The position numbers were made by a program, and so were the translations under genes. Shown here in pieces: positions 10,048-46,620 of a DNA stretch of 64,000 nt (position 1 is the first letter of the stretch; every line of letters starts with the position of its first letter). Below the pieces are notes generated by a model. That model searched no databases. It had not been told where the DNA came from and saw nothing but the letters and a program-made list of their open reading frames with translations. Source of the stretch: Escherichia coli (GTDB lineage: Bacteria > Pseudomonadota > Gammaproteobacteria > Enterobacterales > Enterobacteriaceae); assembly GCF_003991155.1 (NCBI RefSeq), contig NZ_CP031293.1. The stretch is one strand, 5' to 3'.

Positions 10048-10080
10048 CCCCGCCAGCTATAATCGCGGGGCTTCGTTTTT
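10048..10080 (+). terminator. Rho-independent terminator after ykgJ
   Basis: CCCCGCCAGCTATAATCGCGGGG hairpin followed by CTTCGTTTTT. Confidence 0.5.
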
Positions 10081-10273
10081 CAGGGATAACAAAACCCGAA
10101 ACTTCTTCCATCTGCCAGCAACAATGCCTCTTCCTCTATAGTGTTCTCCGGATCTACAGCATCCTGAAGTAGCGCGATGTACTCACTGGCTATCTGCCAT
10201 CAGAAAGTTAAAAACAATGTTTTTAACCTATAAAAATGGCGCTGTATTTGCGCCATTTTTATCATTCAATGCA

Positions 10274-15885: not shown

Positions 15886-18612
15886 CTATTCCCATTCGCT
15901 AACATCTTTCATGCCACTGAGGGTAGCTACAATCCCGGCCCTTGTCAGTTTCACGAATTCTTCAGCCCCAACGGCATCACGAATTGCTTTCATGGCAATT
16001 TTATTGGCCGAAAATCGTTTCTCTGCTGCGGCGATCGCTGCTGGTGATGCCCCTGCGCGCACTGCTTTTGTAGCTTCCTGAACGGCTTTCTCTATCGCAT
16101 ATCGACCACTTCTTGTCGCCCCAATCTTAGCCACAGCATTTCTTAGCGCGCCACCAGCAACCAAACCACTAATCGAACCAATTACACCACCGCCAAAGCC
16201 TCCAGCGATCGCACCTGACTGTTGAACTCCGTTCATAATCACGCCGACGATCTTTGGAAGGCCTGAATCGAGCGTTTTGAGAGCCTCAGTTGTTCTTCCC
16301 GTGCGCTCTACGTATCGCTGCGGTCTGGTACTGGCTTTAGCGAGTACACCGAACTCTTTCATCATTCTACCGAGATCTGGCGCATGACGACTGATGGCGT
16401 TTACATTCTGCTGGGTCATGAGCTTGGCAAAATACTGGATACCTGACTCTTCACCGATTCCTCCCTTCTCTCCCTGCGCCACAGCATGCTGAAGAATAGA
16501 TGCTATTGCAGGTTGGCGTTCTGCTTCCGGCAGCGCGGAGATAAGACGGTGAAAAGCTCCCGTTCCAGTGTTTGCGGATGCCTTAAGCGTATCGGCACCT
16601 TTTCTTACCATAGCGTCTGATGCGAGATCTCGACCAAAAACAGATTCGGCATTTTGTTTGGCGATAATGTAACTTTTAGAGAGATCGTTAGCTTTCTGCC
16701 ATTCTGTGAGGAAGTTTCCTTTTTCAGCCATGATGCGCATGTCATCAGTGATAGCTCTGCGCATTTCTCCGGCAATCCGGGCGGCATTGGCCTTACCTGC
16801 CCGGGTGTTTGCTTGTTCAGCATCAGCAAACTTAGCACGCCATGCCTTCATCCCGTCGAAGGTTATGCCGCCACCTTGGTTGTTGGCAGCCTGAAACTGT
16901 TTCATCTCCGGGCTGAGTGGAACATTGGCTGCTTTTTCTGCTTGGACGACAGCCATCCCATTACTCATTTTCATCCTTTCGCGTGGCATCGTGCTTCGCA
17001 GTTCTGCCCATGCCATATTCTCTGCTGTTTTCATATCACTGAGGCTCGCGATGATGCGCTCTTTAATTGCTGCGCTTTTTTCTGATGCGCTTCCAGACTC
17101 AGCACCGAAATCAGACAACTGCTTATTCAACTTTGAGGATATTTCATTGAAGGCCGTAAGGTGAGCATCCTGAACATTCCCAGGAGTTGATGCCAGAACA
17201 CCTTCTGCTTGGGCAATTCCACGACTACCTGAGCGCATTCCAGGCGTCAGGGTGTTGATATTAATACCAGTGATTTTCGCCGCCTTAGCGACATCATCTC
17301 TGACGTTTGATGCCTGCGATGCGATATGCTCTCGGCCTACGGCAGAACGCGCTGCTTTCGATACATCATTGGCGGTTTCCAGAGTATTTGCTGCCCCTAA
17401 CACATGGCCTGATTGATTTGTATTACTCCGCAATACATCTCGCATTACGTCACTGGCTGTCTGTCCGCTCTTTATTAAAGCGCGTGCTCCTAGCGATCCT
17501 GCTAGGCCAATACCTGTCTCTTTTGCTAGGTCTTCTGGGCTGATCTGCCCGTTCTTTTGGGCGTTCACCAATGTACCTGGCAGGTTTTCTGCCAACATAC
17601 TAGCCACCTTTGTGGCCGCACGTTCAGCACGTGGAGCGTTGGCAACTGAAGAAGCTGCGGTAGCTGCCTTTCCTGCACCTAATCCTGTAATAAGGTAAGG
17701 TGCTAGCTGCTCACCAGCCTGCGCGTATGGATCTGTAGGTTGGTCTACTGGGCGAAAGACAGGTGATATGGGCGTGTATGTGCCATCACCCACACCAAGC
17801 TTCTGAGCTGCCCATGCTCCGGCTGATTGCGCCGCATTGACTACCCCCACGCCTGCGTCCATTACATCAAACGGTATATTAGCAATCCCTCTGGCCATCT
17901 GCTCTGGCGCAGCTTTCAGTCCTGGCGAAAGATATTCCATCTCAGGATTAAGGTTAGACTTGGCTACTTGCTGCTGCGGTTCCCCGGCATTTTCATCGGC
18001 GAGAAACTGAGCTCTTTTCTGCTCCCATGAACTGGCTGTTGGTAGTCCTGCTTCTATGTTCTTAAATTGCTGACGTTTTGCTTCCCATGCAGAAATATCT
18101 CCCACCTGAGAGATTTCTTTATCAAGCTCTGAGTAGTCAGGCTGCTGAAGATTGCGATGTTGACTGGTTTGTGCAAACTGCAAGATTTCACTGTCATCAG
18201 GGATTATTCCGGCATCTGCAAATTTACTTACGTAATTAGCCGTTTCATCTGGCAGTGTAGATTTACCGTTTCTGACGGCATTAATACGAGCATAGCCAGA
18301 ATTATACCCAGCCAATGCCATACCTATATCACCAAATCGCTTCATTCCTTTATTGAGATGGTTTGCTGCGATATCCATTTGCTTTTCAAATGGCAGTGAG
18401 CGCGGATCTGTTCCACGATAACCAGCATCACTCATTACTGAGGGCATCAGTTGAGCAAATCCTCTAGCTCCTTTCGGTGACTCGGCACTTCCGTTACCAC
18501 TAGATTCATTGCCAACTAATGTTTCCATCGTCCCTGATGGGAAACCATATTTTTCATCGAGATGACGGGAATAGGCTTTCTGTTTTTCTGTCAGTTGTGC
18601 CATCATTGCCAT
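15886..18612 (-). CDS. Large Ala-rich protein with N-terminal lytic transglycosylase (SLT) motif; phage internal virion/ejection protein-like
   Basis: 908 aa; N-terminus contains ESSGNG...GFAQLMPS...AGYNSGYARI (family-1 LT ES / GLMQ / AYNxG motifs); rest is long Ala/Gly-rich. Confidence 0.6.
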   Translation of the reverse strand: MAMMAQLTEKQKAYSRHLDEKYGFPSGTMETLVGNESSGNGSAESPKGARGFAQLMPSVMSDAGYRGTDPRSLPFEKQMDIAANHLNKGMKRFGDIGMALAGYNSGYARINAVRNGKSTLPDETANYVSKFADAGIIPDDSEILQFAQTSQHRNLQQPDYSELDKEISQVGDISAWEAKRQQFKNIEAGLPTASSWEQKRAQFLADENAGEPQQQVAKSNLNPEMEYLSPGLKAAPEQMARGIANIPFDVMDAGVGVVNAAQSAGAWAAQKLGVGDGTYTPISPVFRPVDQPTDPYAQAGEQLAPYLITGLGAGKAATAASSVANAPRAERAATKVASMLAENLPGTLVNAQKNGQISPEDLAKETGIGLAGSLGARALIKSGQTASDVMRDVLRSNTNQSGHVLGAANTLETANDVSKAARSAVGREHIASQASNVRDDVAKAAKITGININTLTPGMRSGSRGIAQAEGVLASTPGNVQDAHLTAFNEISSKLNKQLSDFGAESGSASEKSAAIKERIIASLSDMKTAENMAWAELRSTMPRERMKMSNGMAVVQAEKAANVPLSPEMKQFQAANNQGGGITFDGMKAWRAKFADAEQANTRAGKANAARIAGEMRRAITDDMRIMAEKGNFLTEWQKANDLSKSYIIAKQNAESVFGRDLASDAMVRKGADTLKASANTGTGAFHRLISALPEAERQPAIASILQHAVAQGEKGGIGEESGIQYFAKLMTQQNVNAISRHAPDLGRMMKEFGVLAKASTRPQRYVERTGRTTEALKTLDSGLPKIVGVIMNGVQQSGAIAGGFGGGVIGSISGLVAGGALRNAVAKIGATRSGRYAIEKAVQEATKAVRAGASPAAIAAAEKRFSANKIAMKAIRDAVGAEEFVKLTRAGIVATLSGMKDVSEWE

Positions 18613-19922
18613 CCCTTAAGTTTTGCCTGATAGTAACTTTCCGGCAGATAGCCATGTGCGGTCACATAATCCTTAACCAGTGAAGGATCCTGCAACAGCA
18701 TTTTGGTATCAGTTTCTTCGTCCTTAGATTTGGTTACAGGAATACCGAGCCCGGCAATCTGTCGTTTCTGCATTCGAATAATTACGTCCTGCGCTTTATT
18801 CAACTCTCGCAAAAATGCCTCATTGCTGGTTGCTGACTTAATGCCATTTTGAGATTGCATAAGGGCAGCCCTTTCCCCTTCGGTTGGGTTAGAGCCAAAA
18901 GTCCCTTTGAGGCTAGGCAGAATAACCTTTAGGTTGTATTCATCAGCTTTGGCGCGTAGGCTTCGTGTGTCTTCTGCTACATCAGGAAGGAATCCAAACC
19001 CCAGCGTCAGGGGGTTATAGTTCTGCGAGCGGGTAACGGCCGAAGGATGTTTCCCTACAATTCCCGCCAGTTCATGACCCACTTCAAGCGCAGAGTTCAA
19101 GGAGTCGATGTTACCTACAACAGTATTAATTTTATCGTTCATCTTCTCCACTTTCGCCTGCTGTACCTTGCTCAGTTCAGCATTGAGCTTGTCTCTCTCG
19201 ATGTCATTTTGAGCACGTCCAAGTCGTGCTTTCAGAACCATTTCTCTCGTGCGTAGTTGGTTATCGGATAGGACTTTGAACTGCTCCATATCGAGACGTC
19301 GATTACCCTGTTCCGCATTAACCTGAGCATTATATGCGGATGTATCTGCGTTCTGCTGTGCAATGCTCTGCCCTTGCTGCTTCTCTTGAACACTAAAGTA
19401 ACTATTTGGATCAGCATGGAGGTGGATGAGGTCAGTGATTCTGTTGAATTCCTGTGGGTCATTCTGCCAAGACTGATAAACCTCTTCAGCAGGAAGACCA
19501 AATCGCTGTAATACTGGATTTGCCTGCTGAATGGCCTTCTGCATGGTCAGTGGATCTCCAGTTTGTGACGCAAGACGCAGATTCATGGCAGCGTCAGCGG
19601 TCTGTCGATTTTGCTCAGCATCAATGAATCCCATCTGTTTTTGAGAATCAGCCATAAACTGGGGATACTGGGCCATTAACTTCTGCACGCCAACACGATC
19701 ATTATTAGCTACCGCACTACCCAACCGTGCCTGATATTCTTTTAACTGCTGGGAAATTTGCGCCTGCTGATTAATCTCAGCAACGCCTCTTAGCCCCTGT
19801 AGCGCCATTAAACCTACGTTTGGCTGCTGCTGATACTGCACAGGCTGAGGAACGGAAGAACGAGGAGCATTATCATTTTGCGGTGCCATGCTAGGCAGCC
19901 CGCCAAGTTGCCATGTCGCCAT
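18603..19922 (-). CDS. Gln-rich coiled-coil protein, ejection-protein-like
   Basis: 439 aa; overlaps downstream gene start (operon). Confidence 0.45.
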   Translation of the reverse strand: MATWQLGGLPSMAPQNDNAPRSSVPQPVQYQQQPNVGLMALQGLRGVAEINQQAQISQQLKEYQARLGSAVANNDRVGVQKLMAQYPQFMADSQKQMGFIDAEQNRQTADAAMNLRLASQTGDPLTMQKAIQQANPVLQRFGLPAEEVYQSWQNDPQEFNRITDLIHLHADPNSYFSVQEKQQGQSIAQQNADTSAYNAQVNAEQGNRRLDMEQFKVLSDNQLRTREMVLKARLGRAQNDIERDKLNAELSKVQQAKVEKMNDKINTVVGNIDSLNSALEVGHELAGIVGKHPSAVTRSQNYNPLTLGFGFLPDVAEDTRSLRAKADEYNLKVILPSLKGTFGSNPTEGERAALMQSQNGIKSATSNEAFLRELNKAQDVIIRMQKRQIAGLGIPVTKSKDEETDTKMLLQDPSLVKDYVTAHGYLPESYYQAKLKGWQ

Positions 19923-20599
19923 TAGAATCCAAGCCCCCCAACAAGACCAATAAGCCCACCACCAATAGCGCCGGCCGCAGTTCCTATTCCAGGAACAACG
20001 GAACCAAGTTGCGCACCCGCTAAAGCGCCTGATGCTGCCCCACCAATACCACGCGCAAGACTGGATGGCTGCTGCGCCTGACCTGCACGAATAGCGCCAA
20101 GCCCCTGCAAGAGTTGTCCGGTATTATTGGCGTAGTTTTGCCCTGCCGTTGCCTGCCCTGATGCCGCATTCATCCCGACATTTAGCAGGTTTCCATAATT
20201 TTGCATTTGCCCACTAAGCCAATTGTTATAAAGCATGGGCGCAATGGAAGATAACTGGTTACTGGTAGCTGTTGAGCCAAGCCCCCCGGTAGCTTCTGCT
20301 GAGACAAGGTTCTGATAACGGGCCTGATCTGCCTGTGTTTTATATAAACCAGAACCAAAGAAATCATTCGCGGCTTTATTCTGCCCTTCCAGAGTCATCA
20401 GTCCTTGCAGTTGTTGTAAAGCAGGCAATCCGACTTCTGCATACGGCTTGAGATTATTCATCACCGTATTCCACTGCTCGCGCTGCAAATCAATTGCCTG
20501 CTGCTGGGCCTTCGCCTGAGCTTTAGAGGCACCACCATCACCGCCTTTTTCGTATACGGCACGATTGAGATGTTTATGAGCTATATGGGTAATTAACAT
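19922..20599 (-). CDS. Gly/Ala-rich protein with hydrophobic C-terminus, ejection-protein-like
   Basis: 225 aa; C-terminal GxxxG-rich hydrophobic segment; contiguous with neighbours. Confidence 0.45.
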   Translation of the reverse strand: MLITHIAHKHLNRAVYEKGGDGGASKAQAKAQQQAIDLQREQWNTVMNNLKPYAEVGLPALQQLQGLMTLEGQNKAANDFFGSGLYKTQADQARYQNLVSAEATGGLGSTATSNQLSSIAPMLYNNWLSGQMQNYGNLLNVGMNAASGQATAGQNYANNTGQLLQGLGAIRAGQAQQPSSLARGIGGAASGALAGAQLGSVVPGIGTAAGAIGGGLIGLVGGLGF

Positions 20600-21054
20600 T
20601 CGCTGAATTCCTTATATTGTTGCCGAGTTAACTGATAAAGCGTTACGCCGACGGGTTTACCACATCTGATATAAGCATCATCAAGGTGACCAACACGGGT
20701 AGCGCCAAGCAAACGGATAATTGCCCGTCCATATTTTGTGGTGTCAGGAACCATAGTGATGCTGTTAAGGAATGGTGAGTTTTCGAGAAGCCATTTGCAG
20801 AATAATCGATGCCCTTGCAGTGCATATTCACCACGGAATCCGGGGTCGTACACCGCATGGCATTCAACAACGCTATGCCAGAAGTTACGCACTTCATGAA
20901 CGCCAGCCAGCACTAATCCTTCGTAGATGCCGAGATATACCGCATCAGGCTTGATGTAGTACGTGTGCCCCGGCTCAACAATATTTTCGGTATTGCCTGG
21001 CTCGTTAAGAAAGGCCTGTAATCGCACAGGGTTATCAATAAATTTTAGTTCCAT
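20593..21054 (-). CDS. Hypothetical protein (153 aa), first large gene of the module
   Basis: ORF-track; overlaps next gene start. Confidence 0.4.
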   Translation of the reverse strand: MELKFIDNPVRLQAFLNEPGNTENIVEPGHTYYIKPDAVYLGIYEGLVLAGVHEVRNFWHSVVECHAVYDPGFRGEYALQGHRLFCKWLLENSPFLNSITMVPDTTKYGRAIIRLLGATRVGHLDDAYIRCGKPVGVTLYQLTRQQYKEFSEC

Positions 21055-26353: not shown

Positions 26354-26544
26354 TTTTCACCCCCAAGAATTACCAGCTCGGCACGGGCATCGTTAACCAA
26401 AGATGAGCACGCTTTAATCGCATCCACGACATCAGCAGCGTCCATTTCTTCAGCCGAAAGACTGACAGCAACCAGGACAGCCGCTGCTTGCTCGATTAAT
26501 TGAAGTGCGGACGTAAGTCGAGGGGCATTAATTGAGTTATTCAT
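26350..26544 (-). CDS. Hypothetical small protein (about 64 aa)
   Basis: Internal start [10 protein letters not shown]... in track ORF 26350..26601. Confidence 0.3.
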   Translation of the reverse strand: MNNSINAPRLTSALQLIEQAAAVLVAVSLSAEEMDAADVVDAIKACSSLVNDARAELVILGGEK

Positions 26545-27604
26545 TGGTTGCCCCCGTTTTTCCTGGCATTTCGCCACCTTCCAGCAGGAAATGAACGTCA
26601 CGAACGGCGAGATCCAATATCGCGAGTAACGCCTTCAGTCTTTCGTCTCGTGAGGGAGAGTTGCTCACCAGAATGTCGTTAATCACTTCTGTCAGTGTGA
26701 TGATCTGGCTTGTGCGTTCGAGGGGATCCATATGCACATCGTAGGTTTTAATCATGAGCCACCTCCATGCGGATACGACCAGCAAAAAAGCAGACGTGAT
26801 CGCGCACCAGAGAACGGCGAGCATCGCGTTCAGACTCGGCAGCAATATGATGAATTTTGGCGGTAATTGTCGAGCAATCGCGGCGAACTGCGGCGATAAT
26901 CCAGATAAATTGCGGTTTTTGGGTAGGGGTAGTAGCCAGCATGTGGCAGCCTCCATTCGATAGCATGTAACGCTACCACCGGAAACGCCAATTTCGCTGG
27001 TGGTAGCCCAGACAGGGTTGGCGTAACCGGCTCGAATGGATACCGGCGCTTCCGAAGAAGCCCCTGCCTGAGCCACCATTGATTGACAAAGGCGCTGGAT
27101 TATACACCAACGCCCAAAAAATGGGTGAGTCAGACCTACGACATAAAAAAAGACGCTCGGCGCGTCATATGTCGCCATTCGATTTACTAGGACGCCAATC
27201 CCGGCACCCGTTTTATGAGGTGCCTTATAACCATAAACCGTGTTGCCGCATAACGGCAAGCTCTTTTTTATGGACTCCGAAAACTCGCTATTGGAAGCAC
27301 CAGATGCACAGTACATCGCGCTCATTTCGTTAACGTCACGCGCGTGGACGAATGTTTTTGTGGAGTCACTACACGAGCGGAAGACATCATCTACGACCAG
27401 AAATTTTCTGGCGCAGCCGCTGACCTTCTCAATGCTAATATCATCGCCCGAGATTTCTGATATGGTTAAGGCATCCGTTCCGACCACCAGCAAATGATAA
27501 ACTTTGCTTGTATCTGCTGTATTAATGCCTGACTTTGCCGTCATATTGCTGGATTTTGGCGACATACCAGCCAGTGAAAATGTCTTCTTCTGGACGGTTA
27601 GCAT
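26537..27604 (-). CDS. Long open frame of uncertain gene structure (possibly a 72-aa gene 26537..26755 plus upstream gene)
   Basis: 355 codons without stop; composition atypical in middle part; start overlaps stop of upstream gene. Confidence 0.25.
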
Positions 27605-28618: not shown

Positions 28619-29050
28619 TTAGGCGGCGTTAAACGCGTCCGGGTAGAGTTTCAGAATGTCGGCAATTTCCTGCTGAGAAAGTCCGTTGTGATCATTTATG
28701 TTCGCAAGATGGTTAATATGAGTGATCACTTTCAGAACATCACCACGGCAGGAGAAACGGTAGCGAAGGTGTGTTCCGATACCATCAGGATTCTTTTCGT
28801 CGATACGCTCCAGAGTGATTCCAAGCTGGCGTTCTAACTCTGTTGCATAGTTACGACCAGAAGACAGACGGCAGTAGCGAAGAATGTCATTTTCTGTCCA
28901 TCCCTCTATACCAGTACGCAGCATATAGACTCTGGCACGATGCTTTTTCGGTGTGCGCTTTGGTGCTTGAAGGGATTTTGTAAGGGGCGTAACATCAGAT
29001 ACACGAATATCTGAATTAGCCGCCTGTAATGGGCGGTTTTTCTTTTCCAT
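28619..29050 (-). CDS. Hypothetical protein (143 aa)
   Basis: ORF-track; immediately downstream of alpA. Confidence 0.35.
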   Translation of the reverse strand: MEKKNRPLQAANSDIRVSDVTPLTKSLQAPKRTPKKHRARVYMLRTGIEGWTENDILRYCRLSSGRNYATELERQLGITLERIDEKNPDGIGTHLRYRFSCRGDVLKVITHINHLANINDHNGLSQQEIADILKLYPDAFNAA

Positions 29051-29253
29051 CAGGCCACCTCGTCTCTAGATTCTAATATACACTTCTCAATCCATTCATC
29101 TATTTCAGACTCAACAAAAGCAATTGCCCGACTTCCAATTTTTACCTGTTTAGGGAACCTCCCCTGACTAATAAGACGATAAATCCATGCTTTGCTATAA
29201 CCAGTTCGCCTTTGAACTTCAGAGAGACGAATTAATGAATTGTAATTAGCCAT
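29050..29253 (-). CDS. alpA: AlpA-family transcriptional regulator/excisionase-like
   Basis: 67 aa MANYNSLIRLSEVQRRTGYSKAWIYRLISQGRFPKQVKIGSRAIAFVESEIDEWI; classic AlpA HTH. Confidence 0.75.
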   Translation of the reverse strand: MANYNSLIRLSEVQRRTGYSKAWIYRLISQGRFPKQVKIGSRAIAFVESEIDEWIEKCILESRDEVA

Positions 29254-29680
29254 TTATTAATATCCTGTACTAATGACGCAATAACCCCCTCCTGCAACGA
29301 ATGGCGAGAGTTTTATTTGCGTCAAATGTCGAATACGCCAAAGACCACAATATGAAAAACATATTGCGGTCTTTTATAAAAGATAGTCAGATTGTTTTGG
29401 TTTGTTTGCTCCACAAGGGTAGAGCTACCCTGCATTTCGGCAGGATCACGCTATTAGGCGTGACATCCAGTAGTTTTAAAGAACAATTGCGCTTTGTCAG
29501 CGCCAAAGCCTGTTAAAGAACATTCCGCTTTTCAGCAGCGTAGAAGGCTCAATACACCTTCGTTTATAAAAGAGCGATTGCCCTTCTCCAGGGCTAACTG
29601 TTAAATAGCAATCCTCTGTGAGTTTTTATCAATCTACTCCCCTATACTTTAGTAAACCTCTGTATACTTGTCCAGTTGTT

Positions 29681-30895
29681 TCATGCGTGTTTTTCAAACA
29701 CCATATGCACCACATTTCCGCCATGCTCGAGAGAATCCATATAGTCGGCATACCATTGAAGCATCTCCCGCCGTCCATCCAGATATTGCGCATGGTTGTA
29801 TGTGCCACGAATTGAGTTCTTATCAACGTGAGCGAGCTGCGTTTCTATCCACGCGGTGTTATAGCCCTGCTCATGCAAAATCGTGCTCATAGTGTGTCGG
29901 AACCCATGACCAGTTACACGTCCAGCGTAGCCAATGCGCTTAAACACTTGGTTTATGCTGGCCTCACTCATTGTTTTCCTTGGATCATTGCGCCCGGGAA
30001 ACATAAGAGGGTAATTGCCTGTTATTTCTCTAATCTTCCCAATAAGCGAAAGAGCCTGCTCAGACAATGGCACAATATGAGGCCGCCGCATTTTCATACG
30101 TGAAGCGGGTATCTCCCATATAGCCTTGTTGAAATCAATTTCATCCCATAATGCGCCACGTAGTTCGCCAGTTCGCAAGCCGGTGATAATCAGTAGACGA
30201 GCCGCCATAACAACCAATGCGCTTCCTGAGTAACTGGACAATGCCTTGAAAAAATCAGGTAATTCTTTGGTCGTAAGGAAAGGGTAATGATTAGATTCAT
30301 GGCCTTGCATCGCGCTAGTAAGGTCTGGTGCAGGGTTATACTCTGCGCGACCAGTGACTATTGCATAGCGGAAAACTTCCCCGCACCGCTGCCTCACTTT
30401 TTTGGCTTTTTCTGTCGCACCGCGCCCCTCGATGCGCCGCAGCACATTCAGAAGTTCAAGTGGTTTGATTTCGGCGATTGGTTTTTTGCCAATGTAAGGG
30501 AACACATCTTTGTTGAAGGCTTCGAGGATGTCTGAAGCATAACCAGCAGACCATTTTTTTAATTTGCTGCTGTGCCACTCAAGGGCAATATCTTTGAAGG
30601 TGTTGTTTAACTGCGTTTCCCGGGCAATCTTTTCCTCTCGTTTCGCTTCCATCGGATCGATACCACCAGCGATACCTCTTTTCGCATCTTCACGTTTTGC
30701 CCGAGCATCGGCTAGAGTAACCTCAGGATACACACCTAGTGCCAATAGCTTCTCTTTACCAGCTACACGATATTTAAGTCGCCAGTATTTACCTCCATTA
30801 GGTTTTACCAAGAGATACAAACCGCCACCATCGGCCAGCTTGTAAGCCTTCTCTTTTGGCTTGGCTGTGTCTATTTGACGGGCATTGAGTTTCAC
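29681..30895 (-). CDS. P4-type tyrosine integrase, thrW-adjacent
   Basis: 404 aa; N-terminal arm-binding domain (..KLADGGGLYLLVKPNGGKYWRLKYR..) and catalytic HGFRHT...Y motifs; adjacent to tRNA. Confidence 0.85.
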   Translation of the reverse strand: MKLNARQIDTAKPKEKAYKLADGGGLYLLVKPNGGKYWRLKYRVAGKEKLLALGVYPEVTLADARAKREDAKRGIAGGIDPMEAKREEKIARETQLNNTFKDIALEWHSSKLKKWSAGYASDILEAFNKDVFPYIGKKPIAEIKPLELLNVLRRIEGRGATEKAKKVRQRCGEVFRYAIVTGRAEYNPAPDLTSAMQGHESNHYPFLTTKELPDFFKALSSYSGSALVVMAARLLIITGLRTGELRGALWDEIDFNKAIWEIPASRMKMRRPHIVPLSEQALSLIGKIREITGNYPLMFPGRNDPRKTMSEASINQVFKRIGYAGRVTGHGFRHTMSTILHEQGYNTAWIETQLAHVDKNSIRGTYNHAQYLDGRREMLQWYADYMDSLEHGGNVVHMVFEKHA

Positions 30896-31060: not shown

Positions 31061-31136
31061 TGGTGCCGATAATAGGAGTCGAACCTACGACCTTCGCATT
31101 ACGAATGCGCTGCTCTACCAACTGAGCTATATCGGC
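31061..31136 (-). tRNA. thrW: tRNA-Thr (anticodon CGU)
   Basis: Reverse complement GCCGATATAGCTCAGTTGGTAGAGCAGCGCATTCGTAATGCG...GGTTCGACTCCTATTATCGGCACCA. Confidence 0.9.
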
Positions 31137-46539: not shown

Positions 46540-46620
46540 GTAGGCATGATAAGACGCGCCAGCGTCGCATCAGGCATCGGTGCACAATTGCCGAATCCGG
46601 CGTGAACGCCCTCTCCGTCC
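46540..46620. repeat. REP elements
   Basis: GCATCAGGCATCGGTGCACAATTGCCGAATCCGGCGTGAACGCC REP-type palindromes. Confidence 0.55.

Follow-up and report, generated by a model that had tools for sequence, protein, structure and literature searches.

A tandem array of nut-like elements between int and alpA of an EcCIMP1-type island of Escherichia coli as a putative helper-sensing leader

Introduction

In this study, we analyzed the spacer between the integrase gene int and the activator gene alpA of a chromosomal island in a 64-kb stretch of Escherichia coli DNA (in the following the window, to which all coordinates refer unless another locus is named). By gene order, insertion site and size, the island is an EcCIMP1-type phage-inducible chromosomal island (PICI); EcCIMP1 is the PICI of E. 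coli MP1 and is mobilised by the P22-like phage Kapi1 (PMC11773190). The spacer comprises 427 bp, bounded by the alpA start (29253) and the int stop (29681), and its elements are listed here in 5′ to 3′ direction on the minus strand, which is the sense strand of both int and alpA. We propose that it is transcribed as the leader of the alpA operon and acts as a sensor of helper phages via borrowed N-utilization (nut) sites, with the helper antiterminator N as the signal. We put the probability of this N-sensing mechanism at roughly 55%. That the hairpins and repeats of the spacer are genuine nut-derived elements under selection is highly probable in our view. On the sequence level, the hairpins read as cis-acting antitermination signals in a long leader RNA and not as a trans-acting small RNA.

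Nut-like elements on the sense strand of alpA

An earlier note on this DNA had listed two stem-loops and a duplicated motif in the spacer. All of them are present, namely the hairpins CACGCTATTAGGCGTG at 29447-29462 and GCGCTTTGTCAGCGC at 29489-29503 as well as two copies of TTAAAGAACA at 29476-29485 and 29513-29522 (direct-repeat family D5). While the listed elements stand, further hairpins and two more boxA-like repeats had been overlooked, and the non-functional strand had been read. On the minus strand, the duplicated motif reads UGUUCUUUAA and differs at a single base from boxA, to which NusB/NusE bind in phage nut sites and in rrn leaders.

For comparison, nut sequences were taken from phage records (lambda: NC_001416), comprising lambda nutR (boxA-spacer-boxB, CGCTCTTA-CACATTCCA-GCCCTGAAAAAGGGC) and nutL (CGCTCTTAAAAATTAA-GCCCTGAAGAAGGGC), P22 nutL (CGCTCTTTAAC-TTCGATGAT-GCGCTGACAAAGCGC) and nutR (CGCTCTTTACC-AATCTGAA-CCGCCGACAACGCGG), and Kapi1 nutL (GGCTCTTTAACA-TCGACGGAC-TCTCAAC CTAACC GTTGAGA) and nutR (TGCTCTTTAACA-GTTCTGGCCT-TTCACCT CTAACC GGGTGAG). 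As boxA references, CGCUCUUA was used for lambda, CGCUCUUUA for P22 and UGCUCUUUAACA for phi21 and rrn, while the boxB loop references were GAAAA or GAAGA for lambda, GACAA for P22 and 933W, and CUAACC for phi21.

Going from int towards alpA, boxA-like 0 (29598-29610; UGCUAUUUAACAG; direct-repeat family D1) has one mismatch to the rrn/phi21-type UGCUCUUUAACA and is followed by boxB-like 0 (B0; 29580-29594; GCCCU-GGAGA-AGGGC, i.e. GCCCUGGAGAAGGGC), which agrees at 14 of 15 positions with the lambda nutL boxB GCCCUGAAGAAGGGC. The next motif, boxA-like 1 (29564-29576; CGCUCUUUUAUAA), contains CGCUCUUU, which is the same as the boxA of both P22 nutL and P22 nutR. Hairpin Hb (29543-29561; GAAGG-UGUAUUGAG-CCUUC) begins 7 nt past the 8-nt core of this boxA1, and boxB-like 1 (B1; 29525-29538; CUGCU-GAAA-AGCGG) carries a GNRA tetraloop. 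The two copies of TTAAAGAACA, read on the other strand, are boxA-like 2 (29510-29522; UGUUCUUUAACAG) and boxA-like 3 (29473-29485; UGUUCUUUAAAAC). Each is followed by one of the two hairpins known from the earlier note: boxB 2 (B2; 29489-29503; GCGCU-GACAA-AGCGC, i.e. GCGCUGACAAAGCGC) corresponds to GCGCTTTGTCAGCGC, and boxB-like 3 (B3; 29445-29464; GUCACGC-CUAAUA-GCGUGAU) to CACGCTATTAGGCGTG.

B2 is identical at 15/15 positions to the boxB of P22 nutL and to the boxB in the annotated nutL of 933W-type phages. Together with its flanks (GGCGCTGACAAAGCGCAAT) it matches the 933W-type nutL at 19/19 positions and, since 933W nutL itself holds GGCGCTGACAAAGCGCAAT, B2 and its flanks derive from that lineage. 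The window contains one exact copy of the B2 sequence, the chance expectation of an exact 15-mer match being about 1e-4 per window, and the gap from boxA2 to B2 is 8 nt vs 9 nt in P22 nutL. B3 is phi21-like, with a 7-bp stem, a hexaloop in which 4-5 of 6 bases are the same as in CUAACC, and a fold energy of -8.2 kcal/mol (z = -5.5). Over boxA3, spacer and B3, about 31 of 44 nt agree with Kapi1 nutR (~70%, counted manually on the alignment), and the differences in the stem keep the pairing. Also, the start-to-start distance from boxA3 to B3 is 21 nt and equals that of Kapi1 nutL. The last two loop bases of B3 vary, with CUAAUA in the window, CUAAUC in related islands inserted at glyU, and CUAACC in Kapi1.

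Every boxB is preceded by a boxA at a phage-like distance, with the next boxA following after 2-4 nt, and all elements have the sense of alpA. The four boxA-like motifs have 0-1 mismatch each in the 8-nt core, and GCUCUUUA occurs at the same places in other alleles. The pattern GYTCTTTAA was found six times in the window (1.0 expected), including two copies in the spacer, which are located 37 nt apart on the same strand.

Covariance-model search and conservation of the hairpins

A covariance model (R1) was built from four sequences, nutL and nutR of lambda and of P22, and searched against both strands of the whole 64-kb window with filters switched off. The best hit covers 29524-29486 on the alpA strand (29.8 bits, E = 4.6e-5), with boxA2 as its 5′ half and B2, and the second one covers 29612-29577 on the same strand (17.4 bits, E = 0.035) with boxA0 and B0. 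All remaining hits in the window have E > 0.5. These E-values are rough because of the small size of the model. Beyond the window, R1 recovers 933W nutL, which was not used to build it, and, in sense orientation, the leaders of related islands.

The minus strand of the spacer folds with -132 kcal/mol (z = -4.74; 0/100 shuffles as good), the plus strand less stably by 22 kcal/mol (-109.7 kcal/mol, z = -3.33), and several G.U pairs exist in the minus sense only. Covariation across related islands, proposed in the earlier note as a check, was found: Between the thrW lineage, to which the window belongs, and the relatives inserted at glyU (~75% identical), 93.4% of the cells of nine proposed helices are paired, compared to 34-45% with partners slid. 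In four cases, both partners of a pair have changed, once each in Hb, B1 and two hairpins further downstream, hp2 and the long hairpin (see below). The inner pair of Hb changes from G-C to A-U and the B1 pair from U.G to A-U in other alleles, the hp2 pair from U-A to C-G in the glyU relatives, and the pairing of the long hairpin is kept in these relatives through U-A to C-G and G.U to A-U changes. With two lineages only, the covariation is supportive but not decisive; it is consistent with selection acting on the structure of the minus-strand RNA.

Alleles of the array and related loci

The spacer was found in 293 of 5426 complete E. coli genomes (~5%), always on the chromosome, and its carriers include the enterotoxigenic E. 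coli (ETEC) strain H10407 and O26 Shiga toxin-producing E. coli. An identity of at least 90% is kept in 280 E. coli genomes. Five length classes (392, 427, 543, 641 and 651 bp) differ by whole modules. The 392-bp allele is without exactly B1 and boxA2, while the 651-bp allele of ETEC H10407 has extra modules including GCCCUGAAAAAGGGC, which is identical at 15/15 positions to the boxB of lambda nutR. The H10407 allele also holds a 48-nt stretch in sense orientation that agrees at 45/48 positions with the annotated nutL of 933W, H-19B, HK97 and HK106-type phages. This match to 933W nutL surfaced only with the longer H10407 allele at a relaxed E-value; with the 427-bp spacer as query, a BLAST search of 50,697 phage records at E = 1e-5 gave no match. 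In two variants from IMG/VR (L096 and L100), B1 is swapped for a hairpin with a GACAA loop, the flanking boxA being unchanged. The array evolves in a cassette-like manner, in which modules are gained or lost and the loop of one boxB is swapped.

To test the generality of the array, 80 loci of other species were inspected, each with a gene for a relative of AlpA (68-79% identical). Comparable arrays with the same plan and different sequences are present in Pantoea septica and Providencia alcalifaciens, where the loci consist of int, a long spacer, alpA, an open reading frame (ORF) of ~140 aa and an Ant-like ORF. In P. septica (L016), the homologous promoter-like element TGGAAA-N17-TATATT directly after the int stop is followed by four boxA motifs and their hairpins, then by a hairpin homologous to the long one of the window, with CUUUU, and, immediately ahead of alpA, by another hairpin that has a U-run. 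In P. alcalifaciens, a near-consensus promoter (TTGACT/TATAAT) is followed by a boxA, a GAAAA-loop hairpin and five more boxA motifs, four of them with a hairpin after.

Two E. coli islands are disrupted by insertion sequences (IS). In strain 214-4 (L001, 3350-5775), an IS66-family insertion truncates alpA, and in strain 23CRST038 (L005), IS1 replaces the leader from the middle onward so that the int-proximal 138 nt remain. Such islands would be natural knock-outs in which the island is fixed in place. The spacer of another E. coli PICI, EcCICFT073 (strain CFT073; L010, 11161-11525), has a run of (G/A)ACAAC(G) repeats directly after int, spaced by about 10 nt, and another one before alpA. A further motif in it, CACTCTTAAAAAT, is one mismatch from the lambda nutL boxA context CGCTCTTAAAAAT, and 9 nt on from this boxA-like motif there is a long AT-rich hairpin with a GUAAAA loop; the two might form a single degenerate nut site.

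Promoter-like element, candidate terminator and alpA-proximal block

A consensus scan detected a promoter-like sigma70 element on the minus strand (29646-29674), consisting of the -35 hexamer TGGACA (29674-29669), N17 and the -10 hexamer TAAAGT (29651-29646). It is located directly 3′ of the int stop, with a predicted transcription start near 29640. The promoter-like block is kept in the glyU-inserted relatives despite differing flanking int 3′ ends, and the element is part of the fragment used for the published reporter (-449 to +50 of alpA). Within its spacer (29662-29668) the window has GTATACAGAGGTTTAC, and the glyU relatives (L003, L004) have the perfect repeat GTATAC-AGAT-GTATAC, GTATACAGATGTATAC; this repeat could be an operator for a dimeric protein.

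Downstream of the array, hairpins hp2 (29429-29444; CCUGC-CGAAAU-GCAGG) and hp3 (29408-29425; GCUCUAC-CCUU-GUGGAGC) are followed by a C-rich, G-poor unstructured stretch (29380-29407; starting with AAACAAACCAAAACAAUCUGACUAUC). Nowhere else in the leader does C clearly exceed G (6-9 C vs 1-4 G per 30 nt in this stretch) and, going by this composition, the stretch might possibly be a short Rho-loading (rut-like) segment. Between the array and alpA, a long hairpin (29340-29374; AAAGACCGCAAUAUG-UUUUU-CAUAUUGUGGUCUUU, then GGCGUAUU) represents a candidate terminator with a 12-15 bp stem and -20.8 kcal/mol (z = -7.8). The tail after this hairpin is UUUGGCGUAUU in the window and UUUUUGUCG (UUUUUG) in the glyU relatives. 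On the plus strand, the same region (29340-29376) has a better T-run (TTTTATAAAAG) than the minus strand; therefore, the hairpin may also stop antisense transcription leaving alpA and may thus be a bidirectional terminator.

Closer to alpA, a conserved block on the minus strand (29270-29326; TTTGACGCAAATAAAACTCT at 29307-29326) is nearly invariant across both lineages. Here, the inverted repeat I6, formed by TGACGCAA (29317-29324) and TTGCGTCA (29274-29281), brackets AGGAGGGGG (29285-29293). AlpA is known to activate its own expression (PMC6092414, PMC11773190), and the block is a candidate for the site of AlpA autoregulation or for a second promoter.

The island and its response to the helper phage

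The island has a size of ~20 kb, reaches from thrW to yagU and is inserted at thrW between proA and yagU. Its genes are arranged in the order int, alpA, a 143-aa ORF, an AntA-type antirepressor gene, DUF4222, a C4/isrK region, a TOPRIM/DUF927 primase gene, genes of P22-like ejection proteins, and PerC; as in EcCIMP1, int, alpA, the immunity-RNA zone and the primase gene point in one direction. Across the spacer, EcCIMP1 of strain MP1 and the window differ at 3 of 467 aligned nt (99.4% identical). A lux fusion of the EcCIMP1 alpA region from -449 to +50 was strongly induced only when Kapi1 was induced, and more weakly in a ΔalpA strain (PMC11773190). This study left the inducing Kapi1 factor unidentified (PMC11773190), and for the PICIs of E. 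coli the inducer of alpA "is now under study" according to a report of 2018 (PMC6092414). The suggestion of the earlier note that the spacer could hold the promoter/operator of the alpA operon is thus supported both by the sigma70-like element after the int stop and by the helper-inducible lux expression from the near-identical EcCIMP1 region.

Among the products of Kapi1 is an N-like protein (phrog_271, E = 4e-32) with the arginine-rich N-terminus of phage 21 N. On the island, screening for an N-like protein covered the 143-aa ORF after alpA, which has no Pfam or PHROGs match. In EcCIMP1 of MP1 (L012, 27090-27128), a G to U change affects the P22/933W-type boxB at its first stem base, giving UCGCUGACAAAGCGC, and the nut model scores this equivalent of B2 with 22.5 bits vs 29.8 bits in the window. 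In the H10407 allele, this G/T polymorphism is seen again in the extra P22-type module. Such changes may be a sign that selection is relaxed on boxB types out of use. P22-type ejection proteins as well as gp14 have homologues encoded at ~15886-21054 (minus strand), under the annotations DUF2824, DNA transfer protein, phage DNA ejection protein and lytic transglycosylase (908 aa). It is unusual for a satellite to bring its own ejection proteins, and this inventory fits P22-like or lambdoid helpers.

Proposed mechanism and alternative explanations

Two-plasmid assays have established that N can be supplied in trans and that any transcript responds to it if a cognate nut site is located between promoter and terminator. 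In the mechanism proposed here, the sigma70 promoter after the int stop (~29674-29646) would make a leader RNA of ~390 nt, which would display four boxA-like motifs interleaved with boxB elements of lambda-like, exact P22/933W-type and phi21-like sequence; longer alleles would contribute a boxB exactly as in lambda nutR and a larger part of 933W nutL. Without a helper, transcription would end before alpA at the hairpin 29374-29340, perhaps assisted by Rho at the C-rich stretch. During lytic growth of a lambdoid or P22-like helper, its N protein would bind the cognate boxB on the nascent leader and, together with NusA, NusB, NusE and NusG at boxA, convert RNA polymerase to a termination-resistant form. 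The polymerase would then read through into alpA, and AlpA would amplify its own expression, probably at 29326-29270, leading to excision and replication of the island. The identities to phage sites, their orientation and spacing, the conservation of the hairpins and the turnover of modules are results of the sequence analysis, whereas we infer the transcription start, the termination at the hairpin, the role of N as inducer and the AlpA site; the measurement in support of these steps is the published reporter result for the near-identical EcCIMP1 region. The model fits the published induction, which is helper-specific, SOS-independent, partly AlpA-independent and conferred by the region alone. 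The further idea that the multi-specific array of nut cassettes, with boxB hairpins gathered from the lambda, P22/933W/HK97 and phi21 families of N, serves for universal eavesdropping on any lytic lambdoid or P22-like phage, Shiga toxin (Stx) phages included, is more tentative and, in our estimation, falls somewhat short of even odds.

Several points weigh against N sensing. The leader transcript, its start and its end are sequence predictions, and in the allele of the window only a weak U-tract follows the candidate terminator, which is why a simple terminator scan did not call the long hairpin. Kapi1, the sole proven helper, has a phi21-type N, whereas the leader has only a diverged phi21-like site: B3 has the loop CUAAUA instead of the CUAACC of Kapi1, and the leader contains no exact phi21 boxB. 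This difference hits the UMAC core of the phi21-type loop (PMC12550061). In addition, position 2 of the B0 loop is a G, and two of the boxA-like motifs carry a C3U substitution (GUUCUUUA). In IMG/VR, no phage nut context was found for B0, B1 or B3. Exact-pattern scans of this database yielded a single chance match in a coding region (L103) for boxA plus B1 and no match for boxA plus B0, and the exact B3 sequence occurred in copies of the island itself and in one unrelated chance match (L104), but in no phage contig. It is also possible that other early proteins of the helper are the inducer by acting on the promoter. Concerning the generality, 78 of the 80 loci with AlpA relatives are without a boxA array, many of them with a coding gene directly upstream or another context, and EcCICFT073, which is induced by lambda and phi80, has an unrelated spacer. 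Therefore, the feature defines one class of islands and not all PICIs.

Control could also be exerted at the promoter level, by a helper early protein other than N (antirepressor, Cro or CII-like) acting on the leader promoter or the alpA-proximal promoter, with the hairpins being insulating terminators or fossil sequence. The reporter shows only that the region from -449 to +50 responds to the helper, the palindrome in the promoter spacer (GTATACAGATGTATAC in the glyU relatives, GTATACAGAGGTTTAC in the window) could be an operator, and the hairpins together with the U-rich boxA motifs score as weak terminators; moreover, the leader offers no exact cognate boxB to the phi21-type N of Kapi1. 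However, such control would leave unexplained why exact boxB copies of several N families are present in correct orientation and spacing and why cassettes are gained and lost, and the palindrome is not conserved in EcCIMP1 or Pantoea. We therefore regard promoter-level control as unlikely. The sponge-like look of tandem sites with several specificities raises the question of a decoy, i.e. a leader RNA that titrates helper N or host Nus factors and thereby modulates the early genes of the helper, all the more as satellites commonly interfere with helper gene expression. Yet the array is located exactly between promoter and alpA, and it is the downstream expression that responds to the helper. 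A single chromosomal copy with a moderate promoter would be a weak sponge, and EcCIMP1 has been reported to aid the replication of Kapi1, not to hinder it (PMC11773190). As a principal function, a decoy appears quite improbable to us, although the two roles are not mutually exclusive.

The boxA motifs are closer to the rrn consensus UGCUCUUUAACA than to lambda boxA, and a boxA 2-4 nt after each hairpin corresponds to the order in rrn leaders. This would be compatible with rrn-like, N-independent antitermination via NusB, NusE, NusA, NusG and SuhB, in the sense of protection from Rho or of termination as in the suhB leader. Such a system would account neither for the phage-specific boxB sequences nor for their variety and, since the reporter is off without a helper, any effect of Nus factors alone is insufficient for expression; we thus consider this explanation a long shot. 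Non-functional debris from recombination with lambdoid prophages, or a gene for a small protein, is hardly credible. Part of the H10407 allele is indeed a clear fragment of a phage nutL, and a 129-aa plus-strand ORF is annotated in some records, but the high identity kept in the 280 genomes, the compensatory changes that preserve the hairpins across lineages and the analogous arrays in two other genera speak against debris, while start, length and frame of the ORF are not conserved.

Coding potential, immunity RNAs and neighbouring features

In line with the earlier note, the spacer contains no credible ORF, as the longest one is not conserved among alleles. It is located on the plus strand (29301-29516), encodes 71 aa and lacks its N-terminus in the glyU-inserted relatives; its length in the indel alleles is 71, 77, 129, 69 and 57 aa. 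Among the RefSeq records listed, none has an annotation beneath the 427-bp form, and a 'hypothetical protein' beneath the spacer is confined to part of the records with the 651-bp allele. As the alleles share no conserved ORF, with start, length and frame varying, a protein-coding reading of the spacer was rejected.

The regulatory interpretation of the earlier note had a second part, according to which the spacer could hold a small RNA like the immunity RNA of P4. While the promoter/operator part is retained, this trans-acting RNA finds no support. An Rfam scan of 28900-30000 with gathering thresholds and with E ≤ 10 revealed nothing near the gathering score of any family. Matches to the C4 antisense RNA (26996-27083, minus strand, 79.5 bits) and to isrK (27146-27223, minus strand, 60.5 bits) are located ~2.2 kb downstream of alpA, and their complementarity to the leader was no better than that of shuffles (108/200 and 17/200 as good, respectively), with a method that is crude for long sequences. 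With no model match, no similarity or complementarity, and the RNAs being located elsewhere, a P4 CI/C4 immunity RNA in the spacer was rejected. The C4 and isrK matches lie inside a 355-aa ORF (26537-27604), which is named 'ash family protein' or 'Icd-like' in RefSeq or is truncated, depending on the strain. By these matches, the region appears to be the P4/P1-type immunity-RNA zone of the island, i.e. the 'Bro zone' of PMC10111431, and the ORF call may partly be an artefact over RNA genes. P4 CI and P1/P7 C4 resemble the spacer in being structured non-coding RNA regions that govern transcription elongation, in P4 likewise in a satellite. They differ from it as processed trans-acting RNAs that terminate transcription by pairing with targets, whereas the spacer would provide signals in cis.

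The tyrosine integrase gene int (29681-30895, minus strand; Pfam Arm-DNA-bind_3, Phage_int_M and Phage_integrase), whose stop codon is the upstream boundary of the leader, adjoins the tRNA-Thr gene thrW (31061-31136). On the other side, alpA (29050-29253, minus strand, ATG at 29253) encodes 67 aa with a match to Pfam Phage_AlpA (E = 7e-20) and is preceded by the Shine-Dalgarno sequence AGGA (29263-29266, minus strand). Two further Rfam matches in the window are unrelated to the spacer: IS009 (10067-10268, minus strand, 191.7 bits) between ykgJ and yagU outside the island, and naRNA4 (46543-46620, minus strand, 60.4 bits), which is just above the threshold.

Comparison with known systems and significance

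Regarding their parts, the elements of the leader are ordinary nut elements. As in lambdoid nut sites, a boxA (CGCUCUUUA or UGCUCUUUAACA) is followed after 8-10 nt by a stem that has either 5 bp and a GNRA-like pentaloop or 7 bp and a hexaloop, some of the copies are identical or nearly identical in sequence (15/15, 19/19 and 45/48), the orientation to transcription is the same, and the array is located between a promoter-like element and a candidate terminator. In phages, however, there is one site per early operon with one specificity, matched to the phage's own N, whereas the island has three to six tandem sites of mixed specificity with boxA on both sides of boxB, and the gene controlled by the leader is the master activator of the satellite, alpA. 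New are the tandem array of mixed specificity, the turnover of cassettes, the setting in a satellite in which a screen of the ORF next to alpA gave no N-like gene, and the placement before alpA. The antiterminator of rrn leaders (boxB-boxA-boxC) shares the boxA match to the rrn consensus and a hairpin immediately 5′ of boxA; in the alpA leader, by contrast, the units are repeated, the hairpins are phage boxB elements, expression is helper-dependent and no boxC was identified, although no search aimed at it was made.

Other satellites also stay silent until an early or late function of the helper appears. The repressor Stl of Staphylococcus aureus pathogenicity islands is derepressed by phage proteins, and P4 is activated by Cox and Ogr of P2. 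Helper-embedded PICIs are read through from late operons of the helper (PMC10111431). In contrast to all of these, the signal proposed for the alpA leader is the antiterminator of the helper, caught by mimicked RNA sites, and the control would act in trans on elongation instead of on a repressor or promoter. With Nun of HK022, a protein that binds the boxB of a rival phage to terminate transcription, it has in common that one element exploits the nut/boxB system of another phage; in the island, the copying concerns RNA sites, and it would activate the element that carries the copies. In our search, which covered literature accessible without subscription, no paper linking PICIs or alpA to nut sites or antitermination was found.

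How Gram-negative PICIs sense their helpers has been open since their description, and the EcCIMP1 paper of 2025 reports only that the alpA region is induced by the helper. If true, the mechanism proposed here would be a simple answer for one class of PICIs, and the reporters for an easy test already exist. A satellite that copies cis-acting RNA signals of its helpers would also be a first, as would stacked nut sites with differing specificity, and the helper range of each island would be predictable from its sequence. EcCIMP1 represses the LEE pathogenicity island according to the title of the study (PMC11773190) and, as the island carries a gene for a PerC-family regulator, cross-talk with the induction of Stx phages would be of practical interest. 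In the tentative reading of universal eavesdropping, RNA polymerase modified by N could also cross the island's own C4/CI-type terminators and drive the whole 17-kb operon. The inducer of at least one class of Gram-negative PICIs would in this reading be a helper antiterminator acting on RNA, and not derepression by protein-protein interaction.

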